Source: Candidatus Odinarchaeota archaeon
GTDB lineage: Archaea; Asgardarchaeota; Odinarchaeia; Odinarchaeales; Odinarchaeaceae
DNA length: 18,433 nt
Assembly (NCBI GenBank): GCA_038826135.1
Contig: JAWBON010000022.1
Coordinates: forward strand, 1 to 18,433
Direction: 5' to 3'
Shown piece after piece: positions 1,017 through 17,634 of this stretch (positions within the stretch are counted from its first letter, which is position 1; each line of letters starts with the position of its first letter). The notes beneath the pieces are model-generated. The model searched no databases. It was not told the DNA's origin and worked only from the letters and a program-made list of their open reading frames with translations. The translations under genes and the position numbers were made by a program.

Positions 1017-3194
1017 ATGAGTCTTAGAGCGCTTGAAGTAGCAGGGGTTGATGCGAGACTTATAAGAAGACTTATTGAGATAGGGGTTGAGGGTTTAACA
1101 GATATTCAAGAGCTAGCTGTAAAGAAAGGATTATTCCGGAGAAAAAACATTTTCATATGCGCTCCCGCTTCATCAGGTAAAACGCTTTTAAGCTATATAA
1201 CCGTGCTGGCGATGGCTTTAAGAGAGCCTAAGTCTAAGGCGGTTATCCTGCTGCCGTTAAGAAGCCAAGCTGATGAGGTAAACATGTATTTGAACAGGGT
1301 TTACGCTGTTTTAGGTTTAAATATTATAAGACTTTCAGATAAATCTCAAGCCAGGCTGGCTGACTCTAATATTATTATTGGAACATTTAAAGAAATGGAT
1401 GAAGCACTACTAGTAAATTACAGCTGGCTATCGGATCTTTCACTAATAGTGGTGGATGAATTCCAGCTGCTCGGACAGCATGAGAAAGGCGGGTTGCTTG
1501 AAAACCTGATTCTAATATTAATTGAAAGATTCAAAGAAACCCAGTTTATCTATTTATCTGATATTATCGGAAACGCTTTTGAAATATCAGAGTGGCTGGG
1601 TGCTGAACTAGCTCAGACATACTCGCATTTAATACCAGTCCGTTACAGTATCCTGCTAGATAAGAAAGATAATAGCGTTCTTTATAGTATAGTGGAGGAG
1701 ACTGTTAAAACAAACGGTCAAATAATAGTATTCACTGAAAACCTGGAACAGGTTATAGAATTATGCGGAGAATTTAAAAAACATTTTAAAAGTTTAATCG
1801 GTGAAGGCCAGGTTAATGAAGTTAAAATTAAACTAGATATTCTCAGAGAGAGAGGTGAGAACACTTATACTAGAGAGTATTTAAGTTATTTTCTAAAATA
1901 CGGGATAGGTTTTCACACTCCGGGTTTATCACCGCTTGAAAAACTGATAGTTGAAGAATTATTCAACTCTAAGATATTGAAAGTTGTTGTGTCCACACCG
2001 GAGATAGGGGCGGCTGTAAACATGCACCCCCGTGTGATCGTGTTTAAAAACACTCAATACAAAACTGGTTTAGAAAACAGGGAGCCGGCTGAACCTAGAT
2101 TTTTAAACCCTAATATCATCCACAACATATTCGGTAGAGCCGGAAACTATAAGTATGATAAAGAAGCCTATGGGATAATATTAGTTTACGATGAAAAAAT
2201 AAAAGAATTTGTTGAAAAACGTTTCTTCAAGAAAAATATCAGAGGCGAGCTTCTTCCAAGATATGATTATTTGAAAAGCATGCTATTAAACAATAATTAT
2301 ATAGAATACATGCTCACTTATTTAGCAACTCAATATGATAAGATGGGGAAATCGCAGTTAACAGAGCTTTTTGAAAAATCGTTATATTATCGGCAGGCTA
2401 GCTTAGATGAGAAAAAGAGAGTGAGTGAATATTTTAATATCATAGAGGCGGATAAAGCAGTTCGTAATAGAACAGATTATTCTACAAGAATGAATGCTAT
2501 GAAAACAAGTTTCAGCATGCTATCAGATATTAATTGTGATGAAAACAGAGTAGAGGCTTCGATCATAAGCCCTACAAGTCTTAGAAAACATAAATTATAC
2601 ATTTTTGGAAACGGTTATATGAGTTGCGACTGCGAGTATTGGAGGTTTAAAGCCTCCCGGGAGGGAAAACTCTGTAAGCATTTAGCAGCACTGATATTAA
2701 TAGCGGGAGAGGGCAAAATCTCCAGGCAAGCCTCCGATATAGTTTTAAAAGCGTTGAATCCACGCAGCCTAATATTAGATCTAGCATTAAAAAATTATAT
2801 AAGAATAAGCGAGGATGCGATTACGCCAACAGATAAAGGTAGACTCTGCGCTTATACAAGCATACCCCCGTCACTTTTAACCTCACTAATAACAATATTA
2901 GAGAGTAAAATAGATGATAAAACCAAGTTTCTTAAATGTTTAATAGAGGTTATCAGAAACAGTCTGGTTGAACTACCATACTCGTCTTCTAAAAGCCAGA
3001 GTGCATTAGAATATTTAACAGGGGTGATTGAAGAAAACCCGGCTGGTTTTGAACCCGGGGATTTTAAAAAACTTTTAAACTATATTGAATGGGTTTTCAA
3101 CTCGCTTACAATGATAATAAAATATCTTGGTAAAAAATGGTTAGAAGATGAATTGTTAAAGTTTAAAGAGAAATTGTATGAGCAAACAGGATAA
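1017..3194 (+). CDS. Hel308/Ski2-like SF2 helicase paralogue with degenerate motifs and an inserted SWIM zinc finger
   Basis: Q-motif LTDIQ, Walker A APASSGKT, motif II region VVDEFQ, GIGFHTPGL, GRAG, and a Hel308-like ratchet segment (EPGDF...EW). CxC-x13-CxH at 2625-2681. ATG 1017 preferred over GTG 1005 because GGTGA (1004-1008) sits 8 nt upstream of it. Confidence 0.85.
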   Translation: MSLRALEVAGVDARLIRRLIEIGVEGLTDIQELAVKKGLFRRKNIFICAPASSGKTLLSYITVLAMALREPKSKAVILLPLRSQADEVNMYLNRVYAVLGLNIIRLSDKSQARLADSNIIIGTFKEMDEALLVNYSWLSDLSLIVVDEFQLLGQHEKGGLLENLILILIERFKETQFIYLSDIIGNAFEISEWLGAELAQTYSHLIPVRYSILLDKKDNSVLYSIVEETVKTNGQIIVFTENLEQVIELCGEFKKHFKSLIGEGQVNEVKIKLDILRERGENTYTREYLSYFLKYGIGFHTPGLSPLEKLIVEELFNSKILKVVVSTPEIGAAVNMHPRVIVFKNTQYKTGLENREPAEPRFLNPNIIHNIFGRAGNYKYDKEAYGIILVYDEKIKEFVEKRFFKKNIRGELLPRYDYLKSMLLNNNYIEYMLTYLATQYDKMGKSQLTELFEKSLYYRQASLDEKKRVSEYFNIIEADKAVRNRTDYSTRMNAMKTSFSMLSDINCDENRVEASIISPTSLRKHKLYIFGNGYMSCDCEYWRFKASREGKLCKHLAALILIAGEGKISRQASDIVLKALNPRSLILDLALKNYIRISEDAITPTDKGRLCAYTSIPPSLLTSLITILESKIDDKTKFLKCLIEVIRNSLVELPYSSSKSQSALEYLTGVIEENPAGFEPGDFKKLLNYIEWVFNSLTMIIKYLGKKWLEDELLKFKEKLYEQTG

Positions 3195-3268: not shown

Positions 3269-5218
3269 ATGCCTTTAAACTTAACTTATAAGATACTTAA
3301 AGATCATTTAGTTGAAGGGGAGCTTGTTAAAGGTGAAGAGATAGGTGTGAGAATAGATCGAACATTAACACAGGATGCCACAGGCACATTAACCTATCTT
3401 CAATTCGAAGCATTAGGTTTAGATAAAGTTCGAACAGAATTATCTGTCAGCTATGTGGATCATAACACTCTTCAAACAGATTACATGAATGCTGACGACC
3501 ATAAATATTTGCAGACTGTAGCTGCAAAGTATGGCATATATTTCTCTAAACCAGGTAACGGTATATGCCATCAAGTTAATCTGGAACGGTTTAGTAAACC
3601 GGGTAGAATCCTTTTAGGCTCTGATTCTCACACTCCAACATGCGGCGGTGTTGGAATGCTTGGGATAGGGGCTGGAGGCTTAGATGTAGCTGTAGCTATG
3701 GGAGGAGGTTTATTTTATTTTAACACCCCCGCTGTTCTAGGCGTTGAGCTGACGGGTAGGAGAAAACCATGGGTTTCAGCGAAGGATGTTATATTAGAGG
3801 TTTTAAGAAGGCTTACAGTTAAAGGTGGCGTGGGGAAAATAATAGAGTATTACGGGGAGGGTGTTAAAGATTTAGATGTGTATGAGAGAGCGACTATTAC
3901 AAACATGGGTGCGGAGACAGGGGCGATAAGCTCGATATTCCCCTCAGACGAGATTACAGGAGAATTCTTCCAGCTTCAGAGAAGACCTCAAGACTGGGTT
4001 AAACTTGAAGCTGACGAGGGGTGCGAGTACGATGAGTATATGAGAATAAATTTAGCTGAATTAGAACCTATGATCGCGATACCTCATAGTCCGGGAAACG
4101 TTAAAAAAATAAGCGAGGTTGAAGGGTTGCCTGTCGACCAGGTTGCAGTCGGCAGCTGTACAAATTCATCTCTGAAAGATCTTATGATAATTGCAGCGAT
4201 ACTTAGAGGTAAAACCGTGCATCCTGATGTTAGCTTAACTATTTCACCTGGTTCTAAGCAAATCCTTGAGGAAATAGCTAGAAACGGTGTACTAGCTGAT
4301 TTAATAGCTTCAGGGGCTAGAATACTTGAAACAGCTTGCGGTCCCTGCATCGGCATGGGGCAGGCTCCAAGAACTGGCGGTGTTTCTCTGAGAACGTTTA
4401 ACAGGAATTTTAAAGGTAGAAGCGGAACAGAGGATGCTCAGGTATTTTTAGCAAGCCCGGAGGCGGCTGCAGCTGCAGCTTTACATGGGAGGATAACAGA
4501 TCCTAGGAGGCTGGGAAGCTACCCATCCGTGAAGCTTCCGAAGGAAATTAATGTAAACGATAATTTGATAATAAAACCTCCTAAAGACTCTTCTAAAGTA
4601 GAGGTGGTAAGAGGGCCTAACATAAAGCCTATACCAGCTAATACGCCTCTGCCGGAGAATATAATTTTAGAAATTATACTTAAAGTCCGCGATAATATAT
4701 CTACAGATGAGATACTGCCTGCGGGTGTGAAAGTCTTGCCGTTAAGAAGCAATATACCGGCTATAAGCGAATACTTGTTTAAACCAATAGATCCCACGTT
4801 TATAGACCGGGTGAAAAAGAAGAAGGGAGGGGTGATATTAGCGGGTGAAAATTACGGTCAAGGTTCCAGTCGTGAACATGCAGCGATAGTGCCGATGTAT
4901 CTTGGAGTTAAAGTGATCATAGCTAAATCATACGCGCGAATACATAGAGCGAACTTGATAAATTTCGGTGTACTACCGTTACAGTTAACCGATCCATCAG
5001 ATTATAATAAAATAGATCAGGGAGATATATTGAATATTAAGAATATAAGAAAGCTGCTTGAAGACGGCAAGCAGACAGTGGATGTTTTAAACACTAGTAA
5101 ACGGTTAATATTCAAAACAAAACATGATTTAACACCCAGACAGGTGAAGATAATATTAGCAGGCGGGCTTTTAAACTATGTAAGAGAAGCCAACATATCC
5201 AGGTCTGGAAATAGGTGA
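3269..5218 (+). CDS. acn: Single-chain aconitate hydratase-family protein (short Aquifex/archaeal-type, C-terminal swivel domain)
   Basis: 649 aa. Motifs TQDATG, DHN, PGNGICHQV, GSDSHT, three [4Fe-4S] cysteines (GSCTN; ACGPC), NRNFKGR, and swivel-domain GENYGQGSSREHAA. Confidence 0.9.
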   Translation: MPLNLTYKILKDHLVEGELVKGEEIGVRIDRTLTQDATGTLTYLQFEALGLDKVRTELSVSYVDHNTLQTDYMNADDHKYLQTVAAKYGIYFSKPGNGICHQVNLERFSKPGRILLGSDSHTPTCGGVGMLGIGAGGLDVAVAMGGGLFYFNTPAVLGVELTGRRKPWVSAKDVILEVLRRLTVKGGVGKIIEYYGEGVKDLDVYERATITNMGAETGAISSIFPSDEITGEFFQLQRRPQDWVKLEADEGCEYDEYMRINLAELEPMIAIPHSPGNVKKISEVEGLPVDQVAVGSCTNSSLKDLMIIAAILRGKTVHPDVSLTISPGSKQILEEIARNGVLADLIASGARILETACGPCIGMGQAPRTGGVSLRTFNRNFKGRSGTEDAQVFLASPEAAAAAALHGRITDPRRLGSYPSVKLPKEINVNDNLIIKPPKDSSKVEVVRGPNIKPIPANTPLPENIILEIILKVRDNISTDEILPAGVKVLPLRSNIPAISEYLFKPIDPTFIDRVKKKKGGVILAGENYGQGSSREHAAIVPMYLGVKVIIAKSYARIHRANLINFGVLPLQLTDPSDYNKIDQGDILNIKNIRKLLEDGKQTVDVLNTSKRLIFKTKHDLTPRQVKIILAGGLLNYVREANISRSGNR

Positions 5219-5240: not shown

Positions 5241-5921
5241 CTATAATTGCAGCCTGTTGCATTTACTTATCCTTATAGCAAAGTTTTCTAACAGTTCATA
5301 TCCGTATTCTGTCTGAGAGACTTCAGGGTGGAATTGAACACCCCAGATTCGATTATGAATATTAAAAGCTTCTACACTGCAGTTAAGGCTGTGCGCTATT
5401 GTTTGACCACCTAAGGGAAGCTTTTCCACCTCGTCGGTGTGAGAGGCCCAAACTTGTAGTTTACTGGGAATATTATAGAATAACGGGTCTTTAGGTTCAT
5501 CTATTATCAGTTCAGCTAAACCGTATTCGCTTTTACTCCCTCTTTTAACGTAGCCATCAAGTTGGTGTGCGATCAATTGGTGACCGTAGCAGATGCCGAG
5601 TATTTTAAGCTTGGAGCTTCTTAAAATGTTTAAGTCACATATTGGAGCGTTCTTCTCGTATACAGAGTTAGGACCGCCGCCGAGAATCACACCTTTAACG
5701 TGGAAGTCAAGCAGCTGCCGGTATGTTGCAGTGTAAGGCAGTATTTCCACGTTTATATCAAGTTCTTCAAGCATTCTTTTTATAAGATGCGTGTACTGGC
5801 CGCCGAAGTCAAGTATCACGATATCTATGTTTTCACGGTCATAGACGTGTTTGTCCATTATCGTAGAGATTTTAGCTTTATCAATTTTTTCAATCATTGT
5901 TTGAGAAGAGTCTTGAAACAT
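5241..5921 (-). CDS. guaA: GMP synthase, glutamine amidotransferase subunit (archaeal split GuaA subunit A)
   Basis: ILDFGGQY, GGGPNSVY, catalytic GICYGHQ, SH-x-D and QFHPEV. ATG 5921 chosen because AGGTGG lies 5 nt upstream; the ORF track starts at GTG 5930. Confidence 0.9.
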   Translation of the reverse strand: MFQDSSQTMIEKIDKAKISTIMDKHVYDRENIDIVILDFGGQYTHLIKRMLEELDINVEILPYTATYRQLLDFHVKGVILGGGPNSVYEKNAPICDLNILRSSKLKILGICYGHQLIAHQLDGYVKRGSKSEYGLAELIIDEPKDPLFYNIPSKLQVWASHTDEVEKLPLGGQTIAHSLNCSVEAFNIHNRIWGVQFHPEVSQTEYGYELLENFAIRISKCNRLQL

Positions 5922-5930
5922 TAAAACCAC

Positions 5931-7016
5931 CTATGTTACCAGCTCCCTTATTCTATTCTGCTTGCATCCTTCGCGAATCTCTCTTGCGATACGCCTGCCC
6001 ATATACATGGGTTCACTGAATTGAAGATATGTATATGGGGAGTAACCTATCGCCACATTGCAGCCGGCTACAATCCTACATGATACTTCGAAAACTATTA
6101 ATTTAAGACTCTCTGTGCAAATTGTCTCTAAACAGAATGGGCCTATTAAACCTGGTGGGGCGATTCGGCGGGAGGCTTCTAAAACTTTTTCACCTAACTC
6201 GTAAACCTGTGAGAGAAGCGATTCCCGGAGAAGCACCATGAAGTTACCTATCACCGTGTAGGTTGCTTCTATTTTAGCTTCAATCTGGTCTGAGGCTGGT
6301 ATTCTTGAAAGACCGTCTACATTAGACTCGTATCTTCTATCCGCTCCGAGAAATTCAAGCCGGTTATTTAGCGGGGAGTAGAAATAGTGCAGGTAAACAG
6401 GTGCACCTAGAATATATTCTTGTATTTGAGGCTCTTTAAGATCTTCCTCGGATATGTGACCTTTACTAAGCATTTCCTTAGCCTTTCTCTCATATGATTC
6501 AAGGTTGTTTGCTAGAAAGTAGCCTCGACCTCCCTTAGCGCGGGGGAATTTCGTTATTGTAAGTGTGTCTATTTCATCAGGCCGCCTGAATGTTTTAGGA
6601 ACAGGGACACCGGATAGTTTAAGCCATTTATCCTGCATTTCCCGGTGAGACTCCCATGTGAGTAACGCCCTGTTTCCGAAAATAGGAAGCTGAAAAGACT
6701 CCTCTATTTTCTCCGAGCCTATATACGCGTTGAAAGAGCCGTGCGGTATTATTATAGAATTCATAGATAACAGCTTCTGTTGAATGCTGTCATCTAATAT
6801 TTGGCTTAAATCATCTAGTAGAATATACTCGTCTACAATTGGAAAATGGTCGTAAACTTTTTTCCTAGCATGCTCGCAAATGCACACGGTTGTAAAACCT
6901 TCTTCTTTAGCGCCTTTAAAAATATTTAGAGCAGAATGGCTTCCAATAGTCGCTATATGTAACTTGCGTGGATCGTATTTTTCAACTGTTTTCTGAACGC
7001 TCTCTCGAAGTATCAT
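5931..7016 (-). CDS. purP: PurP, formate-dependent FAICAR synthetase (ATP-grasp)
   Basis: IATIGSHSAL, PHGSF, KGGRGYF, DRRYESN, GPFCLE, and RIVAG...SPY...MGRRIAREI match the archaeal PurP family. ATG 7016 (361 aa) preferred, downstream of the purM stop and a purine-rich SD-like tract. Confidence 0.92.
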   Translation of the reverse strand: MILRESVQKTVEKYDPRKLHIATIGSHSALNIFKGAKEEGFTTVCICEHARKKVYDHFPIVDEYILLDDLSQILDDSIQQKLLSMNSIIIPHGSFNAYIGSEKIEESFQLPIFGNRALLTWESHREMQDKWLKLSGVPVPKTFRRPDEIDTLTITKFPRAKGGRGYFLANNLESYERKAKEMLSKGHISEEDLKEPQIQEYILGAPVYLHYFYSPLNNRLEFLGADRRYESNVDGLSRIPASDQIEAKIEATYTVIGNFMVLLRESLLSQVYELGEKVLEASRRIAPPGLIGPFCLETICTESLKLIVFEVSCRIVAGCNVAIGYSPYTYLQFSEPMYMGRRIAREIREGCKQNRIRELVT

Positions 7017-7029
7017 ACAGTCCCTTCCT

Positions 7030-8094
7030 TTAATATGAAAGTTCTTCTCCACTAGAAGTTTTTAGTTTAACACCGGGTTCTTTAACGACGCGGCCTAGAA
7101 TAATTGGTTTTAAGCCGTGCGCTCTACATGATTTAATCACTTCAGTTTCATTCTCAGATGGGGTTATAATGCAGAAACCTATACCCATGTTAAACGTCTT
7201 ATACATTTCATAACTGTCCACTCCACCCCACTCTTGGAGACAGGTAAATATTCTAGGAGGCTTAGGCATGTTAAGCTCAAACCCTAGTTTCCCTTTAGTT
7301 ATTCTCATAAGTTTCGTAAACGCTCCACCAGTTATATGAGCTAACCCGGTTACAAGATTATTCTCAACCAGCGGTAAAACCTCTTGAACATATATTCTAG
7401 TAGGGGTTAACAGTATTTCCCCCAAGGTTTTAGAGCCGCTCAACGGCTTTGAATTTAAATCTATTTTTCTCCGTTCAATTATTCTTCTGATCAATGTATA
7501 ACCGTTAGAGTGAAAGCCGCTGCTCGGTAAACCTATCACAATATCACCGGGTTTCACCCTGTCGCCTAGAACTATGTTTTTCGTGGCCAGCACACCGGCG
7601 CGGCGCGCGGCTAAGTGGGAGCCTGAGCCGGGTTTAACCCCTGTTATCACATCAGGCATGATAGCGGTTTCCCCGCCTACTATCGCCGCTCCAGATTTTT
7701 TAGCCCCTTTAACAAGGCCTTTCATTAACTGCTCCGCTAGCAGATGGTTAGATGCCTCTAAGGCTATGTAGTCTACTATAGCCACAGGCTCAGCCCCGCA
7801 GCATACTAGGTCATTTACATTCATAGCGACACAGTCGATGCCTACAGTATCATACTTATCCATTGTTTGAGCTATGAGAACCTTGGTGCCCACACCGTCA
7901 GCGTGTAAGGCGAGAGCTGTTGTCGCGGAGATATTTAGAAGAGCGGCGTAGTGCCCGTACTCGTTTAACAGTTCACCGAACTTATTCCTTCTTAAATTAA
8001 ATGTTGAAGTGATAAGCCTGCCTATCCGTTTATGAGCTTCTTTAGCAAGGTTAATATCAACTCCTGCGCTCTTATAAGTCATCTTAAAGTTCAT
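7030..8094 (-). CDS. purM: Phosphoribosylformylglycinamidine cyclo-ligase (AIR synthetase)
   Basis: TYKSAGVDI, DGVGTK, AMNVNDL, GGETA, SSG-x-HSNG, AHITGG, TFNMGIG. Residues 159-171 deviate from consensus (see findings). Confidence 0.95.
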   Translation of the reverse strand: MNFKMTYKSAGVDINLAKEAHKRIGRLITSTFNLRRNKFGELLNEYGHYAALLNISATTALALHADGVGTKVLIAQTMDKYDTVGIDCVAMNVNDLVCCGAEPVAIVDYIALEASNHLLAEQLMKGLVKGAKKSGAAIVGGETAIMPDVITGVKPGSGSHLAARRAGVLATKNIVLGDRVKPGDIVIGLPSSGFHSNGYTLIRRIIERRKIDLNSKPLSGSKTLGEILLTPTRIYVQEVLPLVENNLVTGLAHITGGAFTKLMRITKGKLGFELNMPKPPRIFTCLQEWGGVDSYEMYKTFNMGIGFCIITPSENETEVIKSCRAHGLKPIILGRVVKEPGVKLKTSSGEELSY

Positions 8095-9439
8095 ATCTAT
8101 ATCCTCTCAGTTCTTTAACAGCGCGCTCCACCTGCTGGATCGCGGTCCCTATATATGAGGACGGGTCCAGCCATTTATCAAGTTCAGCCGGTGATACAAG
8201 CTTAGATAACGTGGGCTCTTGGAGAAGAGCTTGTTTAAAATCTATTTTTTGAGTCCAAGATTTCATAGCGCATATCCTTAATATTTCATGGGCTTGCTGT
8301 CTACCTAAACCTTTGTTAACAAGCTCTATCATTATTTTCTCAGCCATTATCAGGCCTCTGGTTAAGTTAAGATTTCTCAGTATATTATCCTCGTCTAATT
8401 TGACTCCTTTCAGTATTTGAGTTAACTGTCTAAGCATATAGTCTAAGAGTATCATGTTCTCGGGGATGATTATACGTTCAGGAGCGGAGTTTGTGAGATC
8501 CCGTTCATGTTCTAGTGCAGTGTTTTCAAGCGCTGGAAAAGCGTTAGCTATCAGTATACGGGATAAACCGCATATTCTCTCGGATTTGTGAGGGTTTCTT
8601 TTATGAGGCATTGTTGAAGACCCTACTTGGGTTTGCTTAAACTCCTCCCAGACCTCACCTATCTCGGTTCTCTGAAGGTTTCTAAGCTCTTTACCGATTT
8701 TGTTAAGTGTAGCGGCTACAAGACTTGTAAATAATATAAGCTCCGCTATTCTATCGCGTTGAACTATTTGGTTAGATGCTTCAGCTGGTTTTAAACCTAG
8801 TTTACCCATAACCAACTCCTGTATTCTAAATCCTTTCTCCCCGAAGCCGGCCATTGTACCGACAGCCCCAGTCATTTTACCGACTAAAACTCTAGGAGTT
8901 AGCTGGGTTAATCTTATTATATGCCTGTGGATTTCATAAGCCCATATAGTGAATTTTAAACCAAACGTTGTTGGCAGAGCATGCTGGCCGTGTGTTCTAC
9001 CCACACATACGGTTTCCTTATATTTATCAGCTAAGTCCACTACTACATTCTTAAGATTGATAAGATCCTCTGTTATTATTTTAATAGCATCCCTTAATTG
9101 AAGAGCGGTAGCTGTATCCTCGATGTCATAGCTTGTAGCTCCAAGGTGAACGTAATCGCCAGCTTCACCTTCACAGACTTCTGTTAAAGCTTTAACCATA
9201 GCCATAAGATCGTGATGTATTTGCTCCTCTATTTCTTTCACACGCTTCACTTTAACGTATTTTAACGAGGCTTTGCGGGTTATTTCTTCAGCCGCCTTGC
9301 TTGGTATGTTACCAACCTCCGCGTGTGCTTGAGCTAAGGCGGCTTCAACTTCAAGCCATTTCTGAAGTCTAGACTCCTCTGTGAATAATGACCTCATTTC
9401 AGGGTAACAGTACCTGTATTCAATCGGGTGAACATACAT
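8084..9439 (-). CDS. purB: Adenylosuccinate lyase
   Basis: HPIEYRY, HHDLMA, HLGATSYD, GRTHGQHA, the fumarase-superfamily signature GSSTMPHKRNP, and HERDLTNS. GGAGG SD upstream. Confidence 0.96.
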   Translation of the reverse strand: MYVHPIEYRYCYPEMRSLFTEESRLQKWLEVEAALAQAHAEVGNIPSKAAEEITRKASLKYVKVKRVKEIEEQIHHDLMAMVKALTEVCEGEAGDYVHLGATSYDIEDTATALQLRDAIKIITEDLINLKNVVVDLADKYKETVCVGRTHGQHALPTTFGLKFTIWAYEIHRHIIRLTQLTPRVLVGKMTGAVGTMAGFGEKGFRIQELVMGKLGLKPAEASNQIVQRDRIAELILFTSLVAATLNKIGKELRNLQRTEIGEVWEEFKQTQVGSSTMPHKRNPHKSERICGLSRILIANAFPALENTALEHERDLTNSAPERIIIPENMILLDYMLRQLTQILKGVKLDEDNILRNLNLTRGLIMAEKIMIELVNKGLGRQQAHEILRICAMKSWTQKIDFKQALLQEPTLSKLVSPAELDKWLDPSSYIGTAIQQVERAVKELRGYRYEL

Positions 9440-9450
9440 TTTACTTCCTC

Positions 9451-9864
9451 CTATACTTCGGTTCGCTTAGTTAGGTTAAGTATTCTCTTAGCTAATAGAG
9501 CAGCGTTTTTGCCGTTATCTATACCAACCGTTGCTACAGGTACCCCTGGGGGTGTTTGTGTGATTGACAGAAGAGCGTCTAAACCGCCTAGTTTAGCTGA
9601 AACAGGAACACCGATAACAGGTTTCTCAGTATAGGATGCGACAACACCGGGTAGAGCTGCAGCTAACCCGGCTATGCAAATATAGATTTTGAATTTATTA
9701 TCGTTCTCTTTAATATATGTTCTCAGCTTCTCAGGGTCTCTGTGAGCGCTAATATAGTTGACTTCATAAGTTATCTTCTCCTCGTCGAGTGTGGAGGTGA
9801 CTTTCTCCACTATTTCACTATCCGACTTGGAGCCTGCGAGTACAGCTACATCTATTTTACTCAA
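9451..9864 (-). CDS. purE: PurE, N5-CAIR mutase / AIR carboxylase
   Basis: [43 protein letters not shown] start with GAGGTG SD at 9875-9870. Confidence 0.95.
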
Positions 9865-9890
9865 TATCCCACCTCACATGATTATTAGAG

Positions 9891-9902
9891 TTTTAAATAT
9901 AA
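9891..9902 (-). promoter_or_regulatory. Possible internal TATA box upstream of purE
   Basis: TTATATTTAAAA on minus in the 51-nt gap, the largest in the operon, about 27 nt upstream of the purE start. No clear BRE. Confidence 0.25.
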
Positions 9903-9915
9903 TAGAGTTAGCGGT

Positions 9916-10836
9916 TTATATTTTATGGGATTTTATGAATTTTTCAAGCTCTTCAAGATAGGGGAGCCCTCCTCTAGCTCCCATATATTTCACTTTTAAA
10001 GCAGCTGCAGCTACACCCATATAGCCTGCTTCGAATAAGCTTTTATTATTTAATAAGCCTGTTAGGAAACCTGCTGTGAACGCGTCACCTGCACCGGTTG
10101 TGTCTTTAACTTCAACTTTTATAGCCGGGATCATGTATGTCTGCGATTTATCAGCCACCATGCAGCCTTCAGATCCTAGTGTTATAGCCAGTGTTGAAAC
10201 ACCTAGTTGAAACAAAACATTTTTTATATTATCTAAGCCCTCGACGCTGAATATTCTAACAGCCTCATTATATGAGGAAACATATATGTCAGTGTTCATT
10301 ATGATGGGTTTAGCTTTAGCTAAACCCTGGTTTGCAATCAACGCGCCCGGGTTTAAAGCGGTTTTTAAACCATGTTCTTTAACTTTTCTTGAAAGATCTG
10401 ATAGAAATTTAACATTTTCCAAGCTAGCCATATATATTAGACGGGTTTTTAGCAGGGATTCCAATTCCACCTCGCTTATCGAGAGAGTGTTAGCAGCGCC
10501 TGAATACGCGAACATTCTCCGGTCTCCCTTAGAATCCACAGCGATGAAGCATAAACCTGTCGGAGTGTTCTTGGATCTTAATATTAGAGATGTGTCCACA
10601 CCTTCATCCTTGAATTTTTTCACTATCAGGTCGCCGAAAAAATCTACTCCTACTTTTCCTAGGAAGGATACTTTTAACCCGAGCCTGGAGCATGCTACAG
10701 CAGTGTTAGCGGCTGAGCCGCCGTATTCTATTCTAAGATTCGGCACGTATGTTTCATCATCCGAGGCGGGGAACCTGTCGACTGAAGCCACTAAGTCTAT
10801 GAGAGATGCTCCAACAGAGATCAAATCAAATTTCAC
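9916..10836 (-). CDS. PfkB/ribokinase-family carbohydrate or nucleoside kinase
   Basis: GGSAANTAVACSRLG (PfkB signature 1), GKVGVDFFG, and DTTGAGDAFTAGFL (signature 2 with the catalytic Asp). GTG start with GGAGG SD. Confidence 0.92.
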   Translation of the reverse strand: MKFDLISVGASLIDLVASVDRFPASDDETYVPNLRIEYGGSAANTAVACSRLGLKVSFLGKVGVDFFGDLIVKKFKDEGVDTSLILRSKNTPTGLCFIAVDSKGDRRMFAYSGAANTLSISEVELESLLKTRLIYMASLENVKFLSDLSRKVKEHGLKTALNPGALIANQGLAKAKPIIMNTDIYVSSYNEAVRIFSVEGLDNIKNVLFQLGVSTLAITLGSEGCMVADKSQTYMIPAIKVEVKDTTGAGDAFTAGFLTGLLNNKSLFEAGYMGVAAAALKVKYMGARGGLPYLEELEKFIKSHKI

Positions 10837-10859
10837 GCAGCCAATCCTCCTCTCACACG

Positions 10860-11945
10860 CTATCCTAACACTCCAACCCAGCCTCTAACAGTTTTCCTCA
10901 TATTCTTCTGAGCTTTTATAACCTCTTCAAGCAAATCCCGGTCAGCGTTTCGCAAATCATCTATACGTGGTATAAATTTATGTTCAATAAAGTATCTTTT
11001 CGTCTCCTTTGATAAGAGTGAATCCGGTATTTTCGCAGGGTTATCTTTAAACTCGGAGTATTTTTCCGTCCACGCTTCCAGCCAGTCCCAGATTCTATCA
11101 TGGTTTTCGAATATAGGATATGAGCCCATCTGGTTCGGTGATGTTACAGCTATGTTAGCGTTAGGAACAGAGTACTGGTTGCCGTTAAAGCTTATGGCTA
11201 CACCGTTCTCTCTTTTCACTCTTGACAGCATGTTAATATCTGTTATAGAGTCCCCTACCGCCACTATCTTGTTTAAAGGATAATTATAGTCTTCAGCGAT
11301 CTCTAACATAGCTTGCTCCTTCCTGGTTCCCCCTCTGACAGTAACCTTCATCATTATCTTAGTATATTTCGAACTTGTTTTAAAGAAAAACTGGTTTAAA
11401 TCATCGACTACGGCGTCCAATCCTTTAGAAAGATATTTCGGGAATATTGTGTCGATTAATGTTTTAACAGCGGGTTTGATTTCACCAAGCTCTTTTTTTA
11501 AATCACCTACAGGGAACTCTGTGCAATACACATTAGTTAAGGGGAGACTTATAAGAGAGGCGATATTATATGCGTGTTGTTTATAACTGGTGGATATTAC
11601 GTAAACCCTCCAGTCTCGGAGAAGTTGCTTAATTATATCGGTGATTCCGGGAACAAGACCAGGGTTAGCCTGCGATATATTTGTAAGCTCACCGTCTGTG
11701 AAATAGTATATGTAGAATGGAGCTAAAAGCCTTAAAGTATCTCCTGGTTCATAGCTCTCAACACCGAGGGAGCGGGTTATCTTAGGATTTTCTATAAGGT
11801 AGTCGTCATAGTTGCTTATCATCTGGTAGAATAAGTCCAGTTTAGGGCGGTTGAGTTTAACCTCTAATTTTTTAAATAAATCAGCTGCGAAATCCACGTA
11901 GCTTATAGGTCCCTCAAGATCCCATACTGTAAGCTTCAAAAACAT
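10860..11945 (-). CDS. HAD-superfamily hydrolase, EhaR/COG4030-like (DxE motif I)
   Basis: Motif I WDLEGPIS, motif II ISTSY, motif III Lys (TRKEQ), and motif IV GDSITD. YEPGDTLRLLAPF resembles the EhaR-like family as recalled; this family assignment is not verified by search. Confidence 0.75.
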   Translation of the reverse strand: MFLKLTVWDLEGPISYVDFAADLFKKLEVKLNRPKLDLFYQMISNYDDYLIENPKITRSLGVESYEPGDTLRLLAPFYIYYFTDGELTNISQANPGLVPGITDIIKQLLRDWRVYVISTSYKQHAYNIASLISLPLTNVYCTEFPVGDLKKELGEIKPAVKTLIDTIFPKYLSKGLDAVVDDLNQFFFKTSSKYTKIMMKVTVRGGTRKEQAMLEIAEDYNYPLNKIVAVGDSITDINMLSRVKRENGVAISFNGNQYSVPNANIAVTSPNQMGSYPIFENHDRIWDWLEAWTEKYSEFKDNPAKIPDSLLSKETKRYFIEHKFIPRIDDLRNADRDLLEEVIKAQKNMRKTVRGWVGVLG

Positions 11946-11961
11946 ACCTCTTCCATATTTT

Positions 11962-13263
11962 CTAACCTAATAATTGTTTCATGTGATCTATTCGCTTCTG
12001 AATTAGTTTACGGGTACCTATATCCCTCCTATGAAATAGTTCCCCTCCTATATAGCAGATAGAGCTTTCAGCGATCCTCTCAGCCTGTTCAAGATCAGAG
12101 CCCACACCGAGAACTGCAATACTTCTAGAGGTTGTGGTTAATATTTTACCGTTTTTCTCAGATACAGATGCGTAGTAGACTCTTCCACCAAGGTTTTCTA
12201 TCTCCTGCTCGTCCACGTTAACCTCGGTGGGCACCGGGCTCACCGGATAACCTACAGGTGCAAGATATTTAACCACGGTAGCCTTATTTTCGAATGCAAC
12301 ATGCTTCTCGGATAGATTTCCATCTAGTATTTTAAGACATATATCTGTGAAATTTGTTTGAAGAATGGGGAGAATATTTATAGCTTCAGGGTCTCCGAAT
12401 CTGGAGTTGAATTCCACCAGTCTAAGACCGTTTCTTGTAAGCATGAATTGACCGTAAAGAATCCCTTTATAACTGATTCCGGTCTCTTTTTTCACAGCTT
12501 TAACAGTCTTCTTCAATATATCTAATGCTACGGGAATATAACTGGAGTCTATAAAAGGCAGAGAGTGATCCGGGCAGCTGTATGATCCCATCCCTCCTGT
12601 GTTCGGCCCGTTATCTCCTTCGTAAGCTCTTTTATGATCTTGAACAAGCGGGCTTCCCACAACATGCTCACCGTCGACAAATGCTTGCAACGTGAATTCC
12701 TCACCGTCCAATTTCTCCTCTATAACAGCTTTGCTACCACTGGTAACTATTTCTTCAATGTATCTCTCAGCTTCAACTATGTTGTTTAAATGTTCACCTA
12801 ACACTTTCACACCTTTTCCACCTGTTAAACCATCCGGTTTAACAACTATGTTACCATGCTCTTGAAGATATTTTCGAACATTATTCATGTTCTCGAAAAC
12901 CCTGTATTCCAGGTTTCCTGGAATATTATATTTAGTTAAAAGAAGACGGGTGAAAGATTTACTGGATTCAAGCCTTGCAACAGTTTTACAGGGTCCTACG
13001 CACTGGACACCCGAATCCTCCAGTTTATCCACTAATCCCTCAGCTAAAGGGTCTTCAGGCCCTATTATACAGAAGTCAACATTTTTCGCGTAGTCTACTA
13101 TATCATCAAAATTGTTTAGTGAACCTATTTTAACATCTTCAGATAGACGGCTGATCCCGGGATTACGCGTCTTCATATAGGCGTATAGTCGAGCACCGCT
13201 TTTAACTAGACTTTCAGCTATAGCGTGTTCTCTAGCACCTTGACCGATCAAGAGCACTTTCAT
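11962..13263 (-). CDS. purD: Phosphoribosylamine-glycine ligase
   Basis: GQGAREHA, IGPEDPL, LESSK, KPDGLTGGKGV, QDHKRAYEGDNGPNTGGMG, EFNSRFGDPE, HRRDIG. ATG 13263 follows a GGTGA SD; the ORF track starts at 13284. Confidence 0.96.
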   Translation of the reverse strand: MKVLLIGQGAREHAIAESLVKSGARLYAYMKTRNPGISRLSEDVKIGSLNNFDDIVDYAKNVDFCIIGPEDPLAEGLVDKLEDSGVQCVGPCKTVARLESSKSFTRLLLTKYNIPGNLEYRVFENMNNVRKYLQEHGNIVVKPDGLTGGKGVKVLGEHLNNIVEAERYIEEIVTSGSKAVIEEKLDGEEFTLQAFVDGEHVVGSPLVQDHKRAYEGDNGPNTGGMGSYSCPDHSLPFIDSSYIPVALDILKKTVKAVKKETGISYKGILYGQFMLTRNGLRLVEFNSRFGDPEAINILPILQTNFTDICLKILDGNLSEKHVAFENKATVVKYLAPVGYPVSPVPTEVNVDEQEIENLGGRVYYASVSEKNGKILTTTSRSIAVLGVGSDLEQAERIAESSICYIGGELFHRRDIGTRKLIQKRIDHMKQLLG

Positions 13264-14710
13264 CAACACACTCACCGCCTTCATCCTTATGCGTAAGCTT
13301 CTTCTGTTTAATATTCTTGGCTTTCATATTCGGGTAGCATCCTGTAAGGCAGGCTAAGCAGAGTCTGTTTCGATCAACCCCTATAGCGTCTATTAAGCCT
13401 TCAAGAGACTGGTAACCGAGACTGTCAGCGCCGATGTCGGCTCTTATCTCCTCCACAGATTTGTTAGCGGCTACCAGCTCCTCTTTACTCGGAAAGTCTA
13501 TACCCATATAGCATGGAGATATAATCGGTGGACAGCTTACTCTTAAATGAATTTCTTTAGCCCCAGCTTTCTTAACAATGTTAACTATTCTCCTAGAGGT
13601 TGTGCTTCTAACGATACTGTCATCAACTAAAATAACACGTTTACCTTTTATAGCGTCTTTAACAGGATTAATCTTCAATTTAACATACCGTTCTCTAAGC
13701 TCAGGGTACGGTAGGATGAAAGTCCGCCAAATTGACCTGTTTCTAATAAGGCCTTCAACTAAAGGTATACCTGATTGTTGTGAATATCCTATAGCGGCAA
13801 CTCTGCCAGAGTCAGGGATAGGAATCACAGCATCAGCTTTCACAGGGTGGATTTTAGCCAAGTTCACACCGAGTTTCATTCGAACATCGTGAACAGAAAC
13901 CCCGTTAACAATAGAGTCCGGTCTCGCGAAATAAACGTATTCAAACATGCAGTGAGCTGTCGGCTGAAGGGAGTTAGATGACTCGAAGACCTGGCGTGGT
14001 TCAAGCCGGCTGTTATTGATAGCAAGTATCTCACCAGGGTTAACATCCCGAAGATAGTTTATTTCCAGTATGTCGAATACAACTGTTTCAGATGATATAA
14101 CGTATGAGCCTTTATCTAATTCGCCTATTGATAAAGGTCTGAATCCGAGAGGATCTCTTATAGCGTACAGTTGACCAGTATTATTCATTAAAACCATTGA
14201 GTAAGCTCCTTGGAGGAGCTCCATGGTTTTCTCAATCGCTTTATTATAATTGCAATCTGTTTCTATAAGATAGGATATCATAAGATGCGCTATAACTTCT
14301 GTGTCAGCGTCGGATGTGAACGTGTGACCGCGCCGTATAAGATTCTTTTTCAACTCTATGTGGTTTGTTATATTACCGTTAAAAGCTAAAGCGAACTGTG
14401 TGTCTCCTATGTCAATAGTGTATGGTTGAATATTAGCCTCGTTGCTGGAGCCTGCTGTAGAGTAACGTGTGTGACCTATACCTATATTCCCGAATAATCT
14501 GGCCAAACTATCCTCGGGTATAGCTTCATCAACACCGCCCATACCTTTAACAGATCGTATACTTTTACCTGTGAGAACGCTTATGCCAGCAGACTCCTGA
14601 CCCCTATGCTGTAGAATAAGCAGGCCGTCATATAAAAGATGGGCTACGTTGAAATCCCGGCTTGAAGAGTATACGCCGACGACCCCGCAAGCCTCTTTCA
14701 AGTCATCCAT
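13232..14710 (-). CDS. purF: Amidophosphoribosyltransferase ([4Fe-4S], propeptide type)
   Basis: Short propeptide then CG (Ntn nucleophile), QHRGQESAG, GHTRYST, RDPLGFRPL, CMFEYVYFARPDS, VDDSIVR, PCYMGID, CLAC. Confidence 0.96.
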   Translation of the reverse strand: MDDLKEACGVVGVYSSSRDFNVAHLLYDGLLILQHRGQESAGISVLTGKSIRSVKGMGGVDEAIPEDSLARLFGNIGIGHTRYSTAGSSNEANIQPYTIDIGDTQFALAFNGNITNHIELKKNLIRRGHTFTSDADTEVIAHLMISYLIETDCNYNKAIEKTMELLQGAYSMVLMNNTGQLYAIRDPLGFRPLSIGELDKGSYVISSETVVFDILEINYLRDVNPGEILAINNSRLEPRQVFESSNSLQPTAHCMFEYVYFARPDSIVNGVSVHDVRMKLGVNLAKIHPVKADAVIPIPDSGRVAAIGYSQQSGIPLVEGLIRNRSIWRTFILPYPELRERYVKLKINPVKDAIKGKRVILVDDSIVRSTTSRRIVNIVKKAGAKEIHLRVSCPPIISPCYMGIDFPSKEELVAANKSVEEIRADIGADSLGYQSLEGLIDAIGVDRNRLCLACLTGCYPNMKAKNIKQKKLTHKDEGGECVDESALDRSRC

Positions 14711-16926
14711 TTACTAACACCCATATATCTTGGTATAGTTTCATAGTATAGCTTCCTCAGCCTCCGCGTTGAGCAGCTGATTCTACTCATCTTATATTTG
14801 AATTCGAATCTCCCCGAGTCTGTAACTTGACCTATATTTTTAACAGGAATATTATCCTTCTTGAAGATTTCAATAATCGAGCCGACATTTTCCTTTTTAA
14901 CTGTGAGAATATAGCGGCCGTGACTTTCCGAGAAGAGTATTTCATCAAACCTCAGTTCAGGCTCCCCTAACCCGTCTAAATTTACTGTAGCTGAAAGATT
15001 ATTCTCCATCCCCATTTCAACAAGGCTTATAGCAATTCCACCTCGGAAACAGTCATGAGCTGCTGAAAGTTTACCTGTTCTAACAGCCTTCAAAACAGAT
15101 TTAAGCGTGACAGCTTCTCGCTCAAGGTTTACCACTGGGGCTTTACCTCCTTGAAGCTTATGATAGAAATTATAGTATTCAGAACCCCCCATTTCCCGAT
15201 GGGTTAAACCAACCATCAGTATGATATCACCAGCCTGCTTAAAACTCATAGTGGTTATATATGATAGGTTTTCTATTAATCCCACTGTGAGAACCACGGG
15301 GCATGGTTTAACAACACGCGCGCTAACCTGGTCTTCATTATAGAAGCTTACATTACCGCCTATACATGGGATGCCTAGTTTAAGAGCGTAGTCTGTTAAT
15401 CCTTTAATAGTCTCGTTGAAGCACCATAAAACCTCGGGGTTCTCAGGATTACCGAAGCTTAGACAGTCCACCCATGCTAAAGGTTCAGCTCCCGTTACAG
15501 CTACATTCCTACAGGACTCAGCTAAAGCCCCAGCTCCCCCATTATACGGGTCAAGGTATGAGTGACTGGGGGTGGCGTCTGATTTAGCCGCTACAGCTTT
15601 ATTTCTACCTATCACGCGGAGAACAGCCGCGTCAGCTTGGCCAGGTTTGACAACAGTTCGATCACCAACTTCATGATCATATTGCCGGTACACCCATGCT
15701 TTAGACGCTAGGTTCGGTGAACCGGCTAGTTTGTATACCACATCCGCTAAGTTCTCAGGCATAGCGGGAGGATTTAAATCAGCAAGCTTATCAATATAAG
15801 CGGGTCTCCTTATAGGCCTGTTTAAAACAGGCGGGTCTGAAAGCATTTTAGAAGGAACCTGAGCTACTAAACACCCGTTTTTATAAACATTCACTTTTTG
15901 AGTGTGATTAATCCTTCCAATTATACTATATGGAACCTCGTATTTATCAAAAATCCTTGTTACCTTATCCACACCTTCAGGTTTAACAACAAATAACATT
16001 CTCTCCTGGGATTCAGATATCATGATTTCATAAGGGATCATGTTATCCTCTCTTAATAGTATCTTGTTAAGATCTATTTGCACGCCTGTTCCGCCAGCCC
16101 CGGACATTTCTGAGGATGCACAGGTAAGCCCTCCGCCGCCTAAATCTTTTAAACCGCTGACATAACCTGTTTTAACAGCTTCTAAAGTAGCCTCTATTAT
16201 AAGCTTCTTCGTGAACGGGTCTCCTATCTGCACCGCAGGCCTATCAGCTTCAGACTCCTCTGTTAAAACCCGTGAAGCGAATGTGACACCGTGTATTCCA
16301 TCCCTTCCTGTTGAACCCCCCATAAGTATTAATACATCTCCAACATTCTCAGCTACACTTAAAGCTATATCGCTTCTCTTCGCGAATCCTAAGCAACCTA
16401 CATTCACCAGACAGTTATTCTCATAACTATCGTCGAATTCAACATCCCCGCCAACAGTTGGCACACCTATACAATTACCGTAGTCGCTTATACCTTTAAC
16501 AACATATTCGAAAAGCCATTTAGAATGATTACTAGTTAATTCACCGAATCTGAGATTATTAAATAATGCAACAGGTCTGGCCCCCATGCAGAGAACATCA
16601 CGCACTATGCCGCCTATACCGGTAGCCGCACCGTTATAAGGTTCTATAGCTGATGGGTGGTTATGTGTTTCAACTTTAAATACAGCAACATCACCGTCGT
16701 TGATATCTATGACACCCGCATCCATACCCGGGCCTACAACAACACGCGGACCCTCCCTGGGAAGCTGTTTAAGAAATGGTTTAGAAGACTTATACGAGCA
16801 GTGCTCAGACCACATAACATCTATCATACCTGCTTCAACCTGGTTTGGTTCCCGGCCTAGCATTTTTTTGACCTTCTCAACCTCCTCCTCAGTTAGATTA
16901 ACTTTAACACCGTCAATAACAGGCAT
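14698..16926 (-). CDS. purL: FGAM synthase subunit PurL (small type)
   Basis: WSEHCSYKSS, HNHPSAIEPYNGAATG, TGRDGIHG, VQIGDPF, KDLGGGGL, SESQERM, QYDHEV, GGNVSFYN. Confidence 0.97.
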   Translation of the reverse strand: MPVIDGVKVNLTEEEVEKVKKMLGREPNQVEAGMIDVMWSEHCSYKSSKPFLKQLPREGPRVVVGPGMDAGVIDINDGDVAVFKVETHNHPSAIEPYNGAATGIGGIVRDVLCMGARPVALFNNLRFGELTSNHSKWLFEYVVKGISDYGNCIGVPTVGGDVEFDDSYENNCLVNVGCLGFAKRSDIALSVAENVGDVLILMGGSTGRDGIHGVTFASRVLTEESEADRPAVQIGDPFTKKLIIEATLEAVKTGYVSGLKDLGGGGLTCASSEMSGAGGTGVQIDLNKILLREDNMIPYEIMISESQERMLFVVKPEGVDKVTRIFDKYEVPYSIIGRINHTQKVNVYKNGCLVAQVPSKMLSDPPVLNRPIRRPAYIDKLADLNPPAMPENLADVVYKLAGSPNLASKAWVYRQYDHEVGDRTVVKPGQADAAVLRVIGRNKAVAAKSDATPSHSYLDPYNGGAGALAESCRNVAVTGAEPLAWVDCLSFGNPENPEVLWCFNETIKGLTDYALKLGIPCIGGNVSFYNEDQVSARVVKPCPVVLTVGLIENLSYITTMSFKQAGDIILMVGLTHREMGGSEYYNFYHKLQGGKAPVVNLEREAVTLKSVLKAVRTGKLSAAHDCFRGGIAISLVEMGMENNLSATVNLDGLGEPELRFDEILFSESHGRYILTVKKENVGSIIEIFKKDNIPVKNIGQVTDSGRFEFKYKMSRISCSTRRLRKLYYETIPRYMGVSKWMT

Positions 16927-17634
16927 TTAACGACCACCATTAAAAGATTTTATAAGAGATTCGAATATCAGCCGGCCGTGCTCAGTACGGTATGGGCTGA
17001 GAACTGTTTCAGACGCTCGCTCAGGATGAGGCATCAAACCGACAACGTTCCCTTCAAGATTGCATATCCCGGCTATATTATCCATAGAACCATTAGGATT
17101 AGCCTCTCTTGATTCAACCCCGGATTCGTCAACATATTTAAACACGATTTGATCATTATCGTAAAGCTCTTTAATTCTCTTACGCGTGTTCACATACCGG
17201 CCTTCCTTATGAGCTATAGGTATTCTAATAATAGAGGATTTTTTAACATATCTTGTAAAAGGTGTCCTAGTGGTTTCCACACGGAGATTAACCCATTTAC
17301 ATACAAATGTTAAACAGTCGTTTTGAAGCAGCGCACCGTCTAATAGTTTAGCTTCAATCAGTATTTGAAATCCGTTGCAGATTCCAAGCACAGGTTTACC
17401 CTCAGCAGCCATTTCTCTCACATGCCGCATAGCTGGACTGTAAGCGGCTATCACACCAGCTCGAAGGTGATCACCATATGAAAAACCGCCGGGCAGTATG
17501 ACAGCGTCATAGTCACCGCTGTTAAATTCTTTATGCCAGACTAGGCTAGTTTCCTGTTTCAAAACATCTTTTAAAACGTGGAGGGCATCATAGTCGCAAT
17601 TTGACCCGGGGAATTGTATTATAGCTATTTTCAA
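16927..17634 (-). CDS. purQ: FGAM synthase glutaminase subunit PurQ
   Basis: FPGSNCD, PGGFSYGD, GICNGFQIL, NPNGS, GLMPHPER. TTG start overlaps the purS stop (TTGA), with an AGGAG SD. Confidence 0.96.
   Translation of the reverse strand: MKIAIIQFPGSNCDYDALHVLKDVLKQETSLVWHKEFNSGDYDAVILPGGFSYGDHLRAGVIAAYSPAMRHVREMAAEGKPVLGICNGFQILIEAKLLDGALLQNDCLTFVCKWVNLRVETTRTPFTRYVKKSSIIRIPIAHKEGRYVNTRKRIKELYDNDQIVFKYVDESGVESREANPNGSMDNIAGICNLEGNVVGLMPHPERASETVLSPYRTEHGRLIFESLIKSFNGGR

Follow-up and report, generated by a model that had tools for sequence, protein, structure and literature searches.

The contig JAWBON010000022.1 of assembly GCA_038826135.1 (Candidatus Odinarchaeota archaeon) carries on its forward strand, at positions 1017 to 3194, a gene for a helicase-like protein of 725 amino acids whose motor motifs depart from those of Hel308, which raises the question of whether such a protein can still act as a motor and what it might do otherwise. 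The whole contig of 18,433 nucleotides was analysed and is referred to below as the window; the source genome comprises 1.26 Mb in 105 contigs and is 93% complete. A preliminary description, made from the letters of the window alone, had read the gene as a Hel308-like helicase with coordinated decay of its ATPase and coupling motifs. The results given here lead us, with moderate confidence, to regard the product as a conserved Hel308 paralogue that is probably a nucleotide-binding pseudo-helicase, impaired in hydrolysis and translocation and acting as a clamp, scaffold or partner. The open reading frame (ORF; 1005/1017–3194, +) has no internal stops and an in-frame GTG at 1005 lies upstream of the ATG at 1017, which is the start used in the public-database form of the protein. 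The range of 1017–2200 given in the preliminary description covers the two RecA domains only, since the gene extends to 3194 and includes an insert with a SWIM zinc finger.

Motor motifs and selection on the gene

The closest solved relative by sequence was P. furiosus Hjm/Hel308 (2zj2; phmmer E 6e-40), and the alignment to it reproduced all of the motif pairings of the preliminary description, namely DEFQ/DEIH, LSDII/LSATI, FTENLE/FVNMRR, FHTPGL/FHHAGL, TPEIGAAVN/TPTLSAGIN and GRAGNY/GRAGRP. Residues were then compared with those of 58 relatives, consisting of 42 proteins with the same type of SWIM insert (SWIM-type) and 16 canonical Hel308 proteins. Six positions at which all 58 relatives agree were found to be changed: R157 following motif II (Lys here), R243 of motif IV (Leu), L330 and P337 of motif V (Ile and His) and, in motif VI, Q370 and the second Arg, R377 (both Asn). 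Further changes were observed at H150 of motif II (His in 53/58 relatives, Gln here), at A182 (55/58, Asp) and T183 (56/58, Ile) of motif III, at A302 of motif IVa (57/58, Pro) and at T329 of motif V (56/58, Glu), while the His at position 301, absent from the FHTPGL of this protein, is shared by 45 of the 58. Residues kept are Q31, G54-K55-T56, D147-E148, S181, H300, T327, N335, R339 and G373-R374-A375-G376. The Q motif, the GKT of Walker A and the DE pair are thereby retained, as had been stated earlier; Q31, G54, K55 and T56 agree with 56–58 of the 58 relatives, and all three elements are conserved across two genera of Odinarchaeia, termed g1, to which the source genome belongs, and g2. In superfamily 2 (SF2) helicases the residue classes that are lost here serve to detect the gamma-phosphate, to link hydrolysis with movement and to grip nucleic acid on RecA2. 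Judged from the aligned residues, the changes at invariant positions are far more than chance drift would be expected to leave in a protein that matches Hel308 at E 1e-40, and the pattern of loss is selective in that the elements predicted to hold the nucleotide are retained.

Full-length orthologues were found together with a canonical Hel308 in all seven Odinarchaeia genomes searched, and full-length open frames were also observed in additional metagenome lineages; one public orthologue belongs to Candidatus Odinarchaeum yellowstonii. The odd motifs are almost letter-identical within genus g1 (65–67% identity) and in a metagenome lineage of 50% identity, and roughly 230 alignment columns, the SWIM ligands included, are invariant among five orthologues. 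As the odd motifs are common to the orthologues, the gene is not a single decaying copy among canonical ones. The claim that the decay is coordinated did not hold, however, as the losses form a mosaic in which different catalytic residues, including the Walker B pair, are gone in different lineages of Odinarchaeia. Motif II reads DEFQ, DECQ, EECD, DDFH or DETY, motif III reads SDI, SAN, STN or SSN, and the position of the second motif VI Arg is occupied by N, D, K or R. EECD was observed with GKS in one lineage, DDFH with STN in another and DETY with SSN in genus g2, the proteins of which are full length at 28–30% identity. GK[TS] was present in every Odinarchaeial lineage seen (28–67% identity), as GKS in one of them. 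Mosaic loss of catalytic residues along with a constant GK[TS] suggests that constraint on hydrolysis has been relaxed and nucleotide binding retained.

A separate canonical hel308 is present on a different contig of the source genome. Its product has DEIH, SAT, a motif VI of Q-x-x-G-R-A-G-R and a C-terminal helix-hairpin-helix (HhH) domain, and scores 848 bits to PRK02362, the best Hel308 model (cut-off 887). The 725-residue protein reached 135–163 bits with the NCBIfam Hel308 models, below their cut-offs of 887–1216. Ratios of nonsynonymous (dN) to synonymous (dS) substitution rates were estimated with YN00 for all but the most divergent genome pairs and, read as rough values, amounted to 0.09–0.17 among the orthologues versus 0.06–0.10 for Hel308 in the same pairs, indicating purifying selection. 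Within genus g1 the dN of this gene was about 1.7–2 times that of Hel308, in the single g2 pair it was 0.153 versus 0.027 (more than fivefold), and its stems were longer than those of Hel308 in a motor-region tree. On these estimates the gene is under purifying selection yet evolves faster than Hel308.

An incipient pseudogene under relaxed selection could also give a dN about twice that of Hel308, long stems and, as observed for the copy of the source genome, the longest terminal branch of the genus (0.23 versus 0.09–0.13 in three congeners). Loss of the gene is nevertheless highly improbable in view of the full-length frames that all seven Odinarchaeia genomes and the additional metagenome lineages carry, the low dN/dS, the many invariant columns with the SWIM ligands among them, and a confidently predicted fold. 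The terminal branch of Hel308 from the source genome is similar to those of its congeners. For genomes G002 and G003 (L013, L014 versus L018, L019) dS was 1.35 for the SWIM paralogue versus 0.44 for Hel308 and amino acid identity was 73% versus 94%, a disparity that may stem from mixed populations in the metagenome-assembled genomes (MAGs), from recombination or from very uneven rates.

The proposal of a pseudo-helicase was thus borne out in part: catalytic and coupling residues are lost with the P-loop kept, the orthologues share the changes, the gene is under purifying selection and the genome holds a separate hel308. Such a protein is predicted to bind nucleotide with little or no hydrolysis, and would neither track efficiently along DNA nor unwind it. 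Its putative role would be that of a clamp, scaffold or partner that depends on nucleotide and works either on single-stranded nucleic acid or together with a different repair protein, with the SWIM module as its proposed docking surface and the canonical Hel308 of the same genome as the proposed unwinding enzyme.

A number of observations weigh against this. Motif II has Gln in 4 of the 58 sequences compared, otherwise intact SWIM-type members among them, and Gln is therefore compatible with activity; the Suv3 helicase domain is likewise recognised by Pfam as DEXQ-box. The first Arg of motif VI is present in this protein, and the Lys found in its place in 3/4 of the genus g1 sequences may be a partial substitute in the congeners. 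Genus g2 retains the motif IV Arg, which is also retained in P0124, together with Y-H-H-E-G-L at motif IVa, R-A-G-R/K and most of motif VI, so that at least genus g2 may remain active. The changed motifs STPEI, NMHPR and HEKGGLLE are strongly conserved and could represent a new catalytic arrangement instead of a loss. Finally, dS was 1.1–2.5 in most pairs, which is near saturation and makes the dN/dS values rough.

Much of this would be expected of a functional ATPase or translocase whose motifs are non-canonical, which could be a translocase on double-stranded DNA, an annealase or a remodeller that needs no strand-separating pin and carries compensating residues for the lost Arg. The retained Walker A, DE, Q motif, S181, H300, T327, N335, R339 and G-R-A-G fit such a motor, as do the motif II Gln of otherwise intact family members, the high conservation of the changed motifs at low dN/dS and the motifs IV, IVa and R-A-G-R/K kept in genus g2. 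An active motor has to contend, however, with the change of six positions at which none of the 58 relatives varies, the Gln and second Arg of motif VI included, and with the alteration of the Walker B pair (EE, DD) and of the GKT Thr in sister Odinarchaeial lineages, which would scarcely be expected under selection for hydrolysis. The segment at the position of the strand-separating hairpin speaks against it as well. Its 19 residues (344–362) differ among orthologues by insertions, deletions and substitutions, and by prediction alone they are disordered, with no hairpin in the DSSP string of the structural model and a predicted local distance difference test score (pLDDT) of 44 for residues 351–360. 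On balance we consider an active motor unlikely, although it is the alternative that deserves the most serious attention.

Predicted fold, SWIM insert and the Asgard-wide family

The AlphaFold2 model of the protein, based on 35 aligned sequences, had a pLDDT of 87.5 and a predicted template modelling score of 0.82. Its best structural match was S. solfataricus Hel308 (2va8_A; VIA, Z 35.9, root mean square deviation (rmsd) 3.0 Å, 560 residues), residues 1–723 of the model being aligned with residues 1–644 of Hel308, which make up domains 1–4. The match to 2zj2 had a Z of 35.5, a Foldseek search with the model gave an E of 1.9e-32, and Hel308 structures overall gave Z 34–36 and rmsd 3.0–3.4 Å over 560–579 residues at 22–26% identity. 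The four-domain ring of RecA1, RecA2, winged helix and helical ratchet is present in the model (Table 1). Brr2 cassettes and the helicase domain of Pol theta were the next matches, at Z of about 31. In a Pfam scan only the DEAD domain (RecA1) was recognised, with 63 bits, along with a weak match of Helicase_dom4_arc to residues 681–719; Helicase_C was not matched in the 725-residue protein, versus 46 matches among 51 SWIM-type relatives. As described previously, the protein ends after the ratchet domain: the model reaches Hel308 residue 644 only, no HHH domain was matched by Pfam in the protein, and the canonical Hel308 of the same genome runs about 90 residues past its end in the alignment. 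The absence of the HhH domain therefore stands, but not as a peculiarity of this protein, since failure to detect it is common in the SWIM-type family (HHH_5 in 9/51).

Table 1. Positions in the window of the Hel308-like gene and of its motifs and domains.
Feature	Positions	Strand	Remark
Whole gene, SWIM-bearing Hel308-like paralogue, 725 amino acids	1017..3194	+	ORF list and translation
Q motif (residues 27–34) and motif I/Walker A (residues 49–56, GKT at end)	1095..1184	+	Both kept
Motif II and following block	1455..1502	+	DEFQ; family-invariant Arg (R157) to Lys
Motif III	1557..1565	+	SDI, SAT expected
Motif IV region	1722..1751	+	Invariant Arg replaced (L243)
Motif IVa	1911..1928	+	FHTPGL, FHHAGL expected
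Motif V	1989..2033	+	Second Thr to Glu; NMHPR for N-x-P-A-R
Motif V–VI segment, site of strand-separating beta-hairpin in Hel308	2046..2102	+	Variable, predicted disordered
Motif VI	2121..2150	+	N-x-x-G-R-A-G-N-Y; Gln and second Arg gone
Linker insertion, RecA2 to winged helix	2223..2279	+	F-F...G-x-L-x-P-x-Y...S; family-specific
Winged-helix insert of about 130 residues with SWIM zinc finger	2430..2816	+	Putative Zn ligands at 2625–2681
Winged-helix wing and helical ratchet-like domain 4, protein end	2817..3191	+	No domain 5

The insert of about 130 residues (472–600) separates the helices of the winged helix from its wing. No variation was seen at the putative zinc ligands C537, C539, C553 and H555 across 51 relatives or across 38 insert segments, and the ligand spacing, C-x-C-x13-C-x-H, is that of SWIM. 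The Pfam SWIM model (PF04434) matched residues 536–561 with 17.7 bits, below its cut-off of 19.6, and matched 8 of the 51 relatives at E <= 0.01, the best at 2e-6. Modelled in isolation from 38 sequences, the insert had a pLDDT of 92.9. An exhaustive VIA comparison of this model with 48,161 chains placed the SWIM region of ZSWIM8 (residues 114–216) first, with a Z of 7.0 and an rmsd of 2.6 Å over 89 residues, followed by a chain at Z 3.5 and by Shu2 at Z 3.4; Foldseek returned no match for the isolated insert at E <= 0.001 (best E 0.18).

A profile of five orthologues was searched against 1.84 billion representatives. The pattern C-x-C...C-x-H was found at the same site in about 50 of the best 150 matches, and the source names of these SWIM-type members were Odin-, Jord-, Ran-, Baldr- and Lokiarchaeial and included the cultured Promethearchaeum syntrophicum; members with Thorarchaeial source names were identified as well. 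With a profile of 51 members, full-length matches were obtained in many families of the phylum, while the other families gave partial matches of the canonical Hel308 type only. An insertion in the linker from RecA2 to the winged helix is present in all SWIM-type members and missing from canonical Hel308; both this linker signature and the SWIM insert inside the winged helix were found in the protein studied here. The Hel308 consensus was accordingly the wrong baseline for the preliminary description, as the protein sits in an Asgard-wide, SWIM-bearing family of Hel308-like proteins. Most SWIM-type members are intact, with G-S-G-K-T, DEIH, SAT, the motif IV Arg, FHHAGL, T-T-T-L and Q-x-x-G-R-A-G-R, and decay of the motifs is thus peculiar to certain lineages within a wider family that is for the most part intact. 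Among the 51 members, Pfam matched Helicase_C in 46, domain 4 in 27 and HHH_5 in 9. In the motor-region tree, which like the other tree was built by a quick method, canonical Hel308 formed one starred clade and the SWIM-type proteins made up the remainder.

In a published account archaeal Ski2-like proteins are classed into Hel308, ASH and Brr2 groups, with SWIM unmentioned (PMC10946056). A literature search for an Asgard family of SWIM-bearing Hel308-like proteins, or for SWIM with archaeal Ski2 helicases, returned no paper describing either. The gene of the window thus appears to encode a lineage-specific pseudo-helicase in a Ski2-like family that seems undescribed in the literature searched.

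Thorarchaeial relatives and the origin of the degraded form

Three genes were found in Thorarchaeia, encoding a canonical Hel308, an intact SWIM-type protein (type A) and a SWIM-type protein of 734–811 amino acids (type B). Type B has no Walker A, x-E/D-R-L-D in place of DExH and no SAT, yet is full length and conserved across many genera, and its SWIM signature, C-x-C-E-x-W...C-K-H, is similar to that of the Odinarchaeial proteins. Conservation of type B in the absence of Walker A indicates that the scaffold can be kept without catalysis and has a function independent of it. In most of the type B loci (L058-L065, contigs of Thorarchaeota MAGs) the helicase lies at about 6001–8217; it always precedes the genes for the beta and then the alpha subunit of succinyl-CoA ligase, with a diverging PAC2 gene upstream.

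A further tree was built from the C-terminal half of the proteins, which includes none of the motor motifs. The Odinarchaeial groups, one Ranarchaeial protein with partly degraded motifs and Thorarchaeial type B fell on one side of a branch with a Shimodaira–Hasegawa-like approximate likelihood ratio (SH-aLRT) of 81, in a tree with long branches and modest support. Constraining type B to group with type A cost 25 log-likelihood units (approximately unbiased test, p-AU 0.039), for a group that was defined after the tree had been seen. Given the modest support, the long branches and the post hoc choice of the group, these sequences suggest, rather than establish, one ancient origin of the 'dead' lineage, the alternative being repeated decay.

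The existence of type B also bears on whether the Odinarchaeial protein requires nucleotide. It could, as type B has to be, be a nucleotide-independent scaffold that works through its surfaces only, the SWIM module and the ring, with the P-loop as a structural leftover. This would agree with the full-length conservation of type B in many genera without P-loop or DExH, with the position of the Odinarchaeial, Ranarchaeial and type B proteins on one side of the C-terminal tree and with the marginal rejection of a grouping of types A and B. The grouping with type B is weakly supported and liable to long-branch attraction, however, and the GK[TS] kept in every Odinarchaeial lineage seen suggests ongoing selection for nucleotide binding, which makes a scaffold of this kind rather improbable in our estimation.

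Apart from the favoured reading of a nucleotide-binding pseudo-helicase, a broader scheme can be put forward in which the Asgard SWIM-Hel308 family underwent an early division into an active form and a dead partner form, fully dead in Thorarchaeia and half dead in Odinarchaeia and Ranarchaeia, the dead form regulating or tethering an active Ski2-like motor or a complex of RadA paralogues through its SWIM module. This scheme is speculative and we would not expect it to hold. If true, it would provide a stand-alone counterpart of the Brr2-type pair of active and inactive cassettes, or of the partnerships between Sws1/Shu2 and a Rad51 paralogue and between HELQ and a Rad51 paralogue.

Recombination in both archaea and animals is under the control of Hel308/HELQ-type helicases, and no known group is more closely related to eukaryotes than the Asgard archaea. 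On the evidence above, Asgard lineages appear to maintain under selection a second, SWIM-bearing Hel308-like protein, the motor of which is being or has already been switched off. The protein is a candidate regulatory partner of the recombination or RNA-handling machinery in Asgard archaea, and its relatives, which range from intact to half-dead to fully dead, seem to form a natural series in which the role of a Ski2-like ring without catalysis can be addressed. As regards annotation, SWIM-type genes should be named neither Hel308 nor plain 'DEAD/DEAH box helicase'.

Gene neighbourhood and known systems

In the window the helicase gene diverges from a frame of 279+ codons (1–837, −) that encodes a nucleotidyltransferase domain (NTP_transf_2) and is truncated by the beginning of the contig. 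An aconitase gene (3269–5218, +) lies directly downstream, followed on the opposite strand (5241–18388, −) by a purine cluster of purS/Q/L/F/D, purE, purB, purM, purC and a purP-like gene (DUF1246/DUF1297), interrupted by genes for a PfkB kinase and a HAD hydrolase. The order of diverging nucleotidyltransferase and helicase followed by aconitase, beside the purine operon, is conserved within genus g1. Genus g2 has PALP-ThiN-helicase and type B of Thorarchaeia has PAC2 diverging from helicase-sucC-sucD, and no conserved functional partner emerged from the gene context of g1, g2 and type B. A module of nucleotidyltransferase and helicase was rejected, as the pairing is confined to one genus. So was a defence system of the Hachiman (HamB) kind: the PADLOC matches to HamB, BrxH and Cas3 were generic and partial, the best HamB match (85 bits) covered residues 31–197 only, and there was no HamA-like neighbour.

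In genus g1 a KaiC/RadA-like gene of 252 codons is found at a distance of two genes from the helicase (L020:12200-12958, +). The copy of the source genome is at G000:C69:496-1248 (L045), the contig of the window ending before it is reached. At the expected G-x-x-G-K-T its product has F-D-P-G-S-D-E-W, so that the neighbourhood may contain a second pseudo-ATPase. In several Asgard families a small Rad51/RecA/KaiC-like ATPase (Pfam Rad51 1.6e-11, KaiC 1.9e-10) adjoins intact SWIM-type helicases, with examples from three families at L032:9153-9896 (−), L043:4030-4761 (−) and L037:5754-6560 (−). The genomes in question hold 2–5 Rad51/KaiC-like ATPase homologues each, and in G040 the best match is right next to the helicase. 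A protein of 1100–1650 amino acids with prenyltransferase-toroid and Ig-like domains is often found beside intact SWIM-type helicases as well. As SWIM proteins (Shu2/Sws1) and HELQ each partner Rad51 paralogues in eukaryotes, the pairing with a Rad51-like neighbour is of interest. A link of the Odinarchaeial gene itself to a RadA paralogue was rejected, since the KaiC-like gene of genus g1 is not orthologous to the Rad51/KaiC-like neighbours elsewhere (BLAST E > 0.1).

Two other helicases of the source genome were noted. One is a Ski2-like protein of 868 residues that is extended at its N terminus by about 210 residues, possibly ASH-Ski2-like (G000:C84; L003:868-3474, +), and the other is a helicase of the Lhr type with 528 bits to PRK13767 (G000:C71; L004:1-2361, −).

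With archaeal Hel308/Hjm (2va8, 2zj2, 2p6r) the protein shares the ring of RecA1, RecA2, winged helix and ratchet, the Q motif, Walker A and the DE pair. It differs from them in being a separate paralogue with changes in the motif II His, motif III, the motif IV Arg, motifs IVa and V and the Gln and second Arg of motif VI, and in having the 130-residue SWIM insert, an additional linker segment and no domain 5. The architecture, the site of the insert, the four invariant zinc ligands and the linker signature are those of the intact Asgard SWIM-type helicases, which are annotated just as 'DEAD/DEAH box helicase' (e.g. QEE16306 of Promethearchaeum syntrophicum and proteins from Baldr-, Jord- and Lokiarchaeial MAGs) and which, unlike this protein, have kept the canonical motifs and in some cases (9/51) an HHH domain. 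Thorarchaeial type B (e.g. P0265; L058-L065) shares the full-length Hel308-like scaffold, the lack of domain 5 and degraded motor motifs. Type B is completely dead and stands alongside an intact type A, whereas Odinarchaeia have a single SWIM-type gene that has kept the P-loop and the DE pair.

A possible analogue among characterised proteins is the C-terminal cassette of Brr2, a spliceosomal helicase of eukaryotes, which is described as Ski2-like, nucleotide-binding and enzymatically inactive, with a role in regulation and interaction (PMC8220420). As a nucleotide-binding but inactive module it would be analogous to the protein proposed here, which it matches in structure at Z of about 31; the tied scores of the two Brr2 cassettes indicate no specific kinship to either. 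The Brr2 cassette is arranged in tandem with an active cassette, has a Sec63 unit and lacks SWIM. The present protein is a single cassette of 725 amino acids with a SWIM insert, in which Pfam found no match to Sec63, and it therefore falls outside the Brr2-type arrangement. The insert in turn resembles, in fold and ligand spacing, ZSWIM8 as well as Shu2/Sws1, which partners Rad51 paralogues, with the difference that here the SWIM module is an insertion in the winged helix of a helicase.

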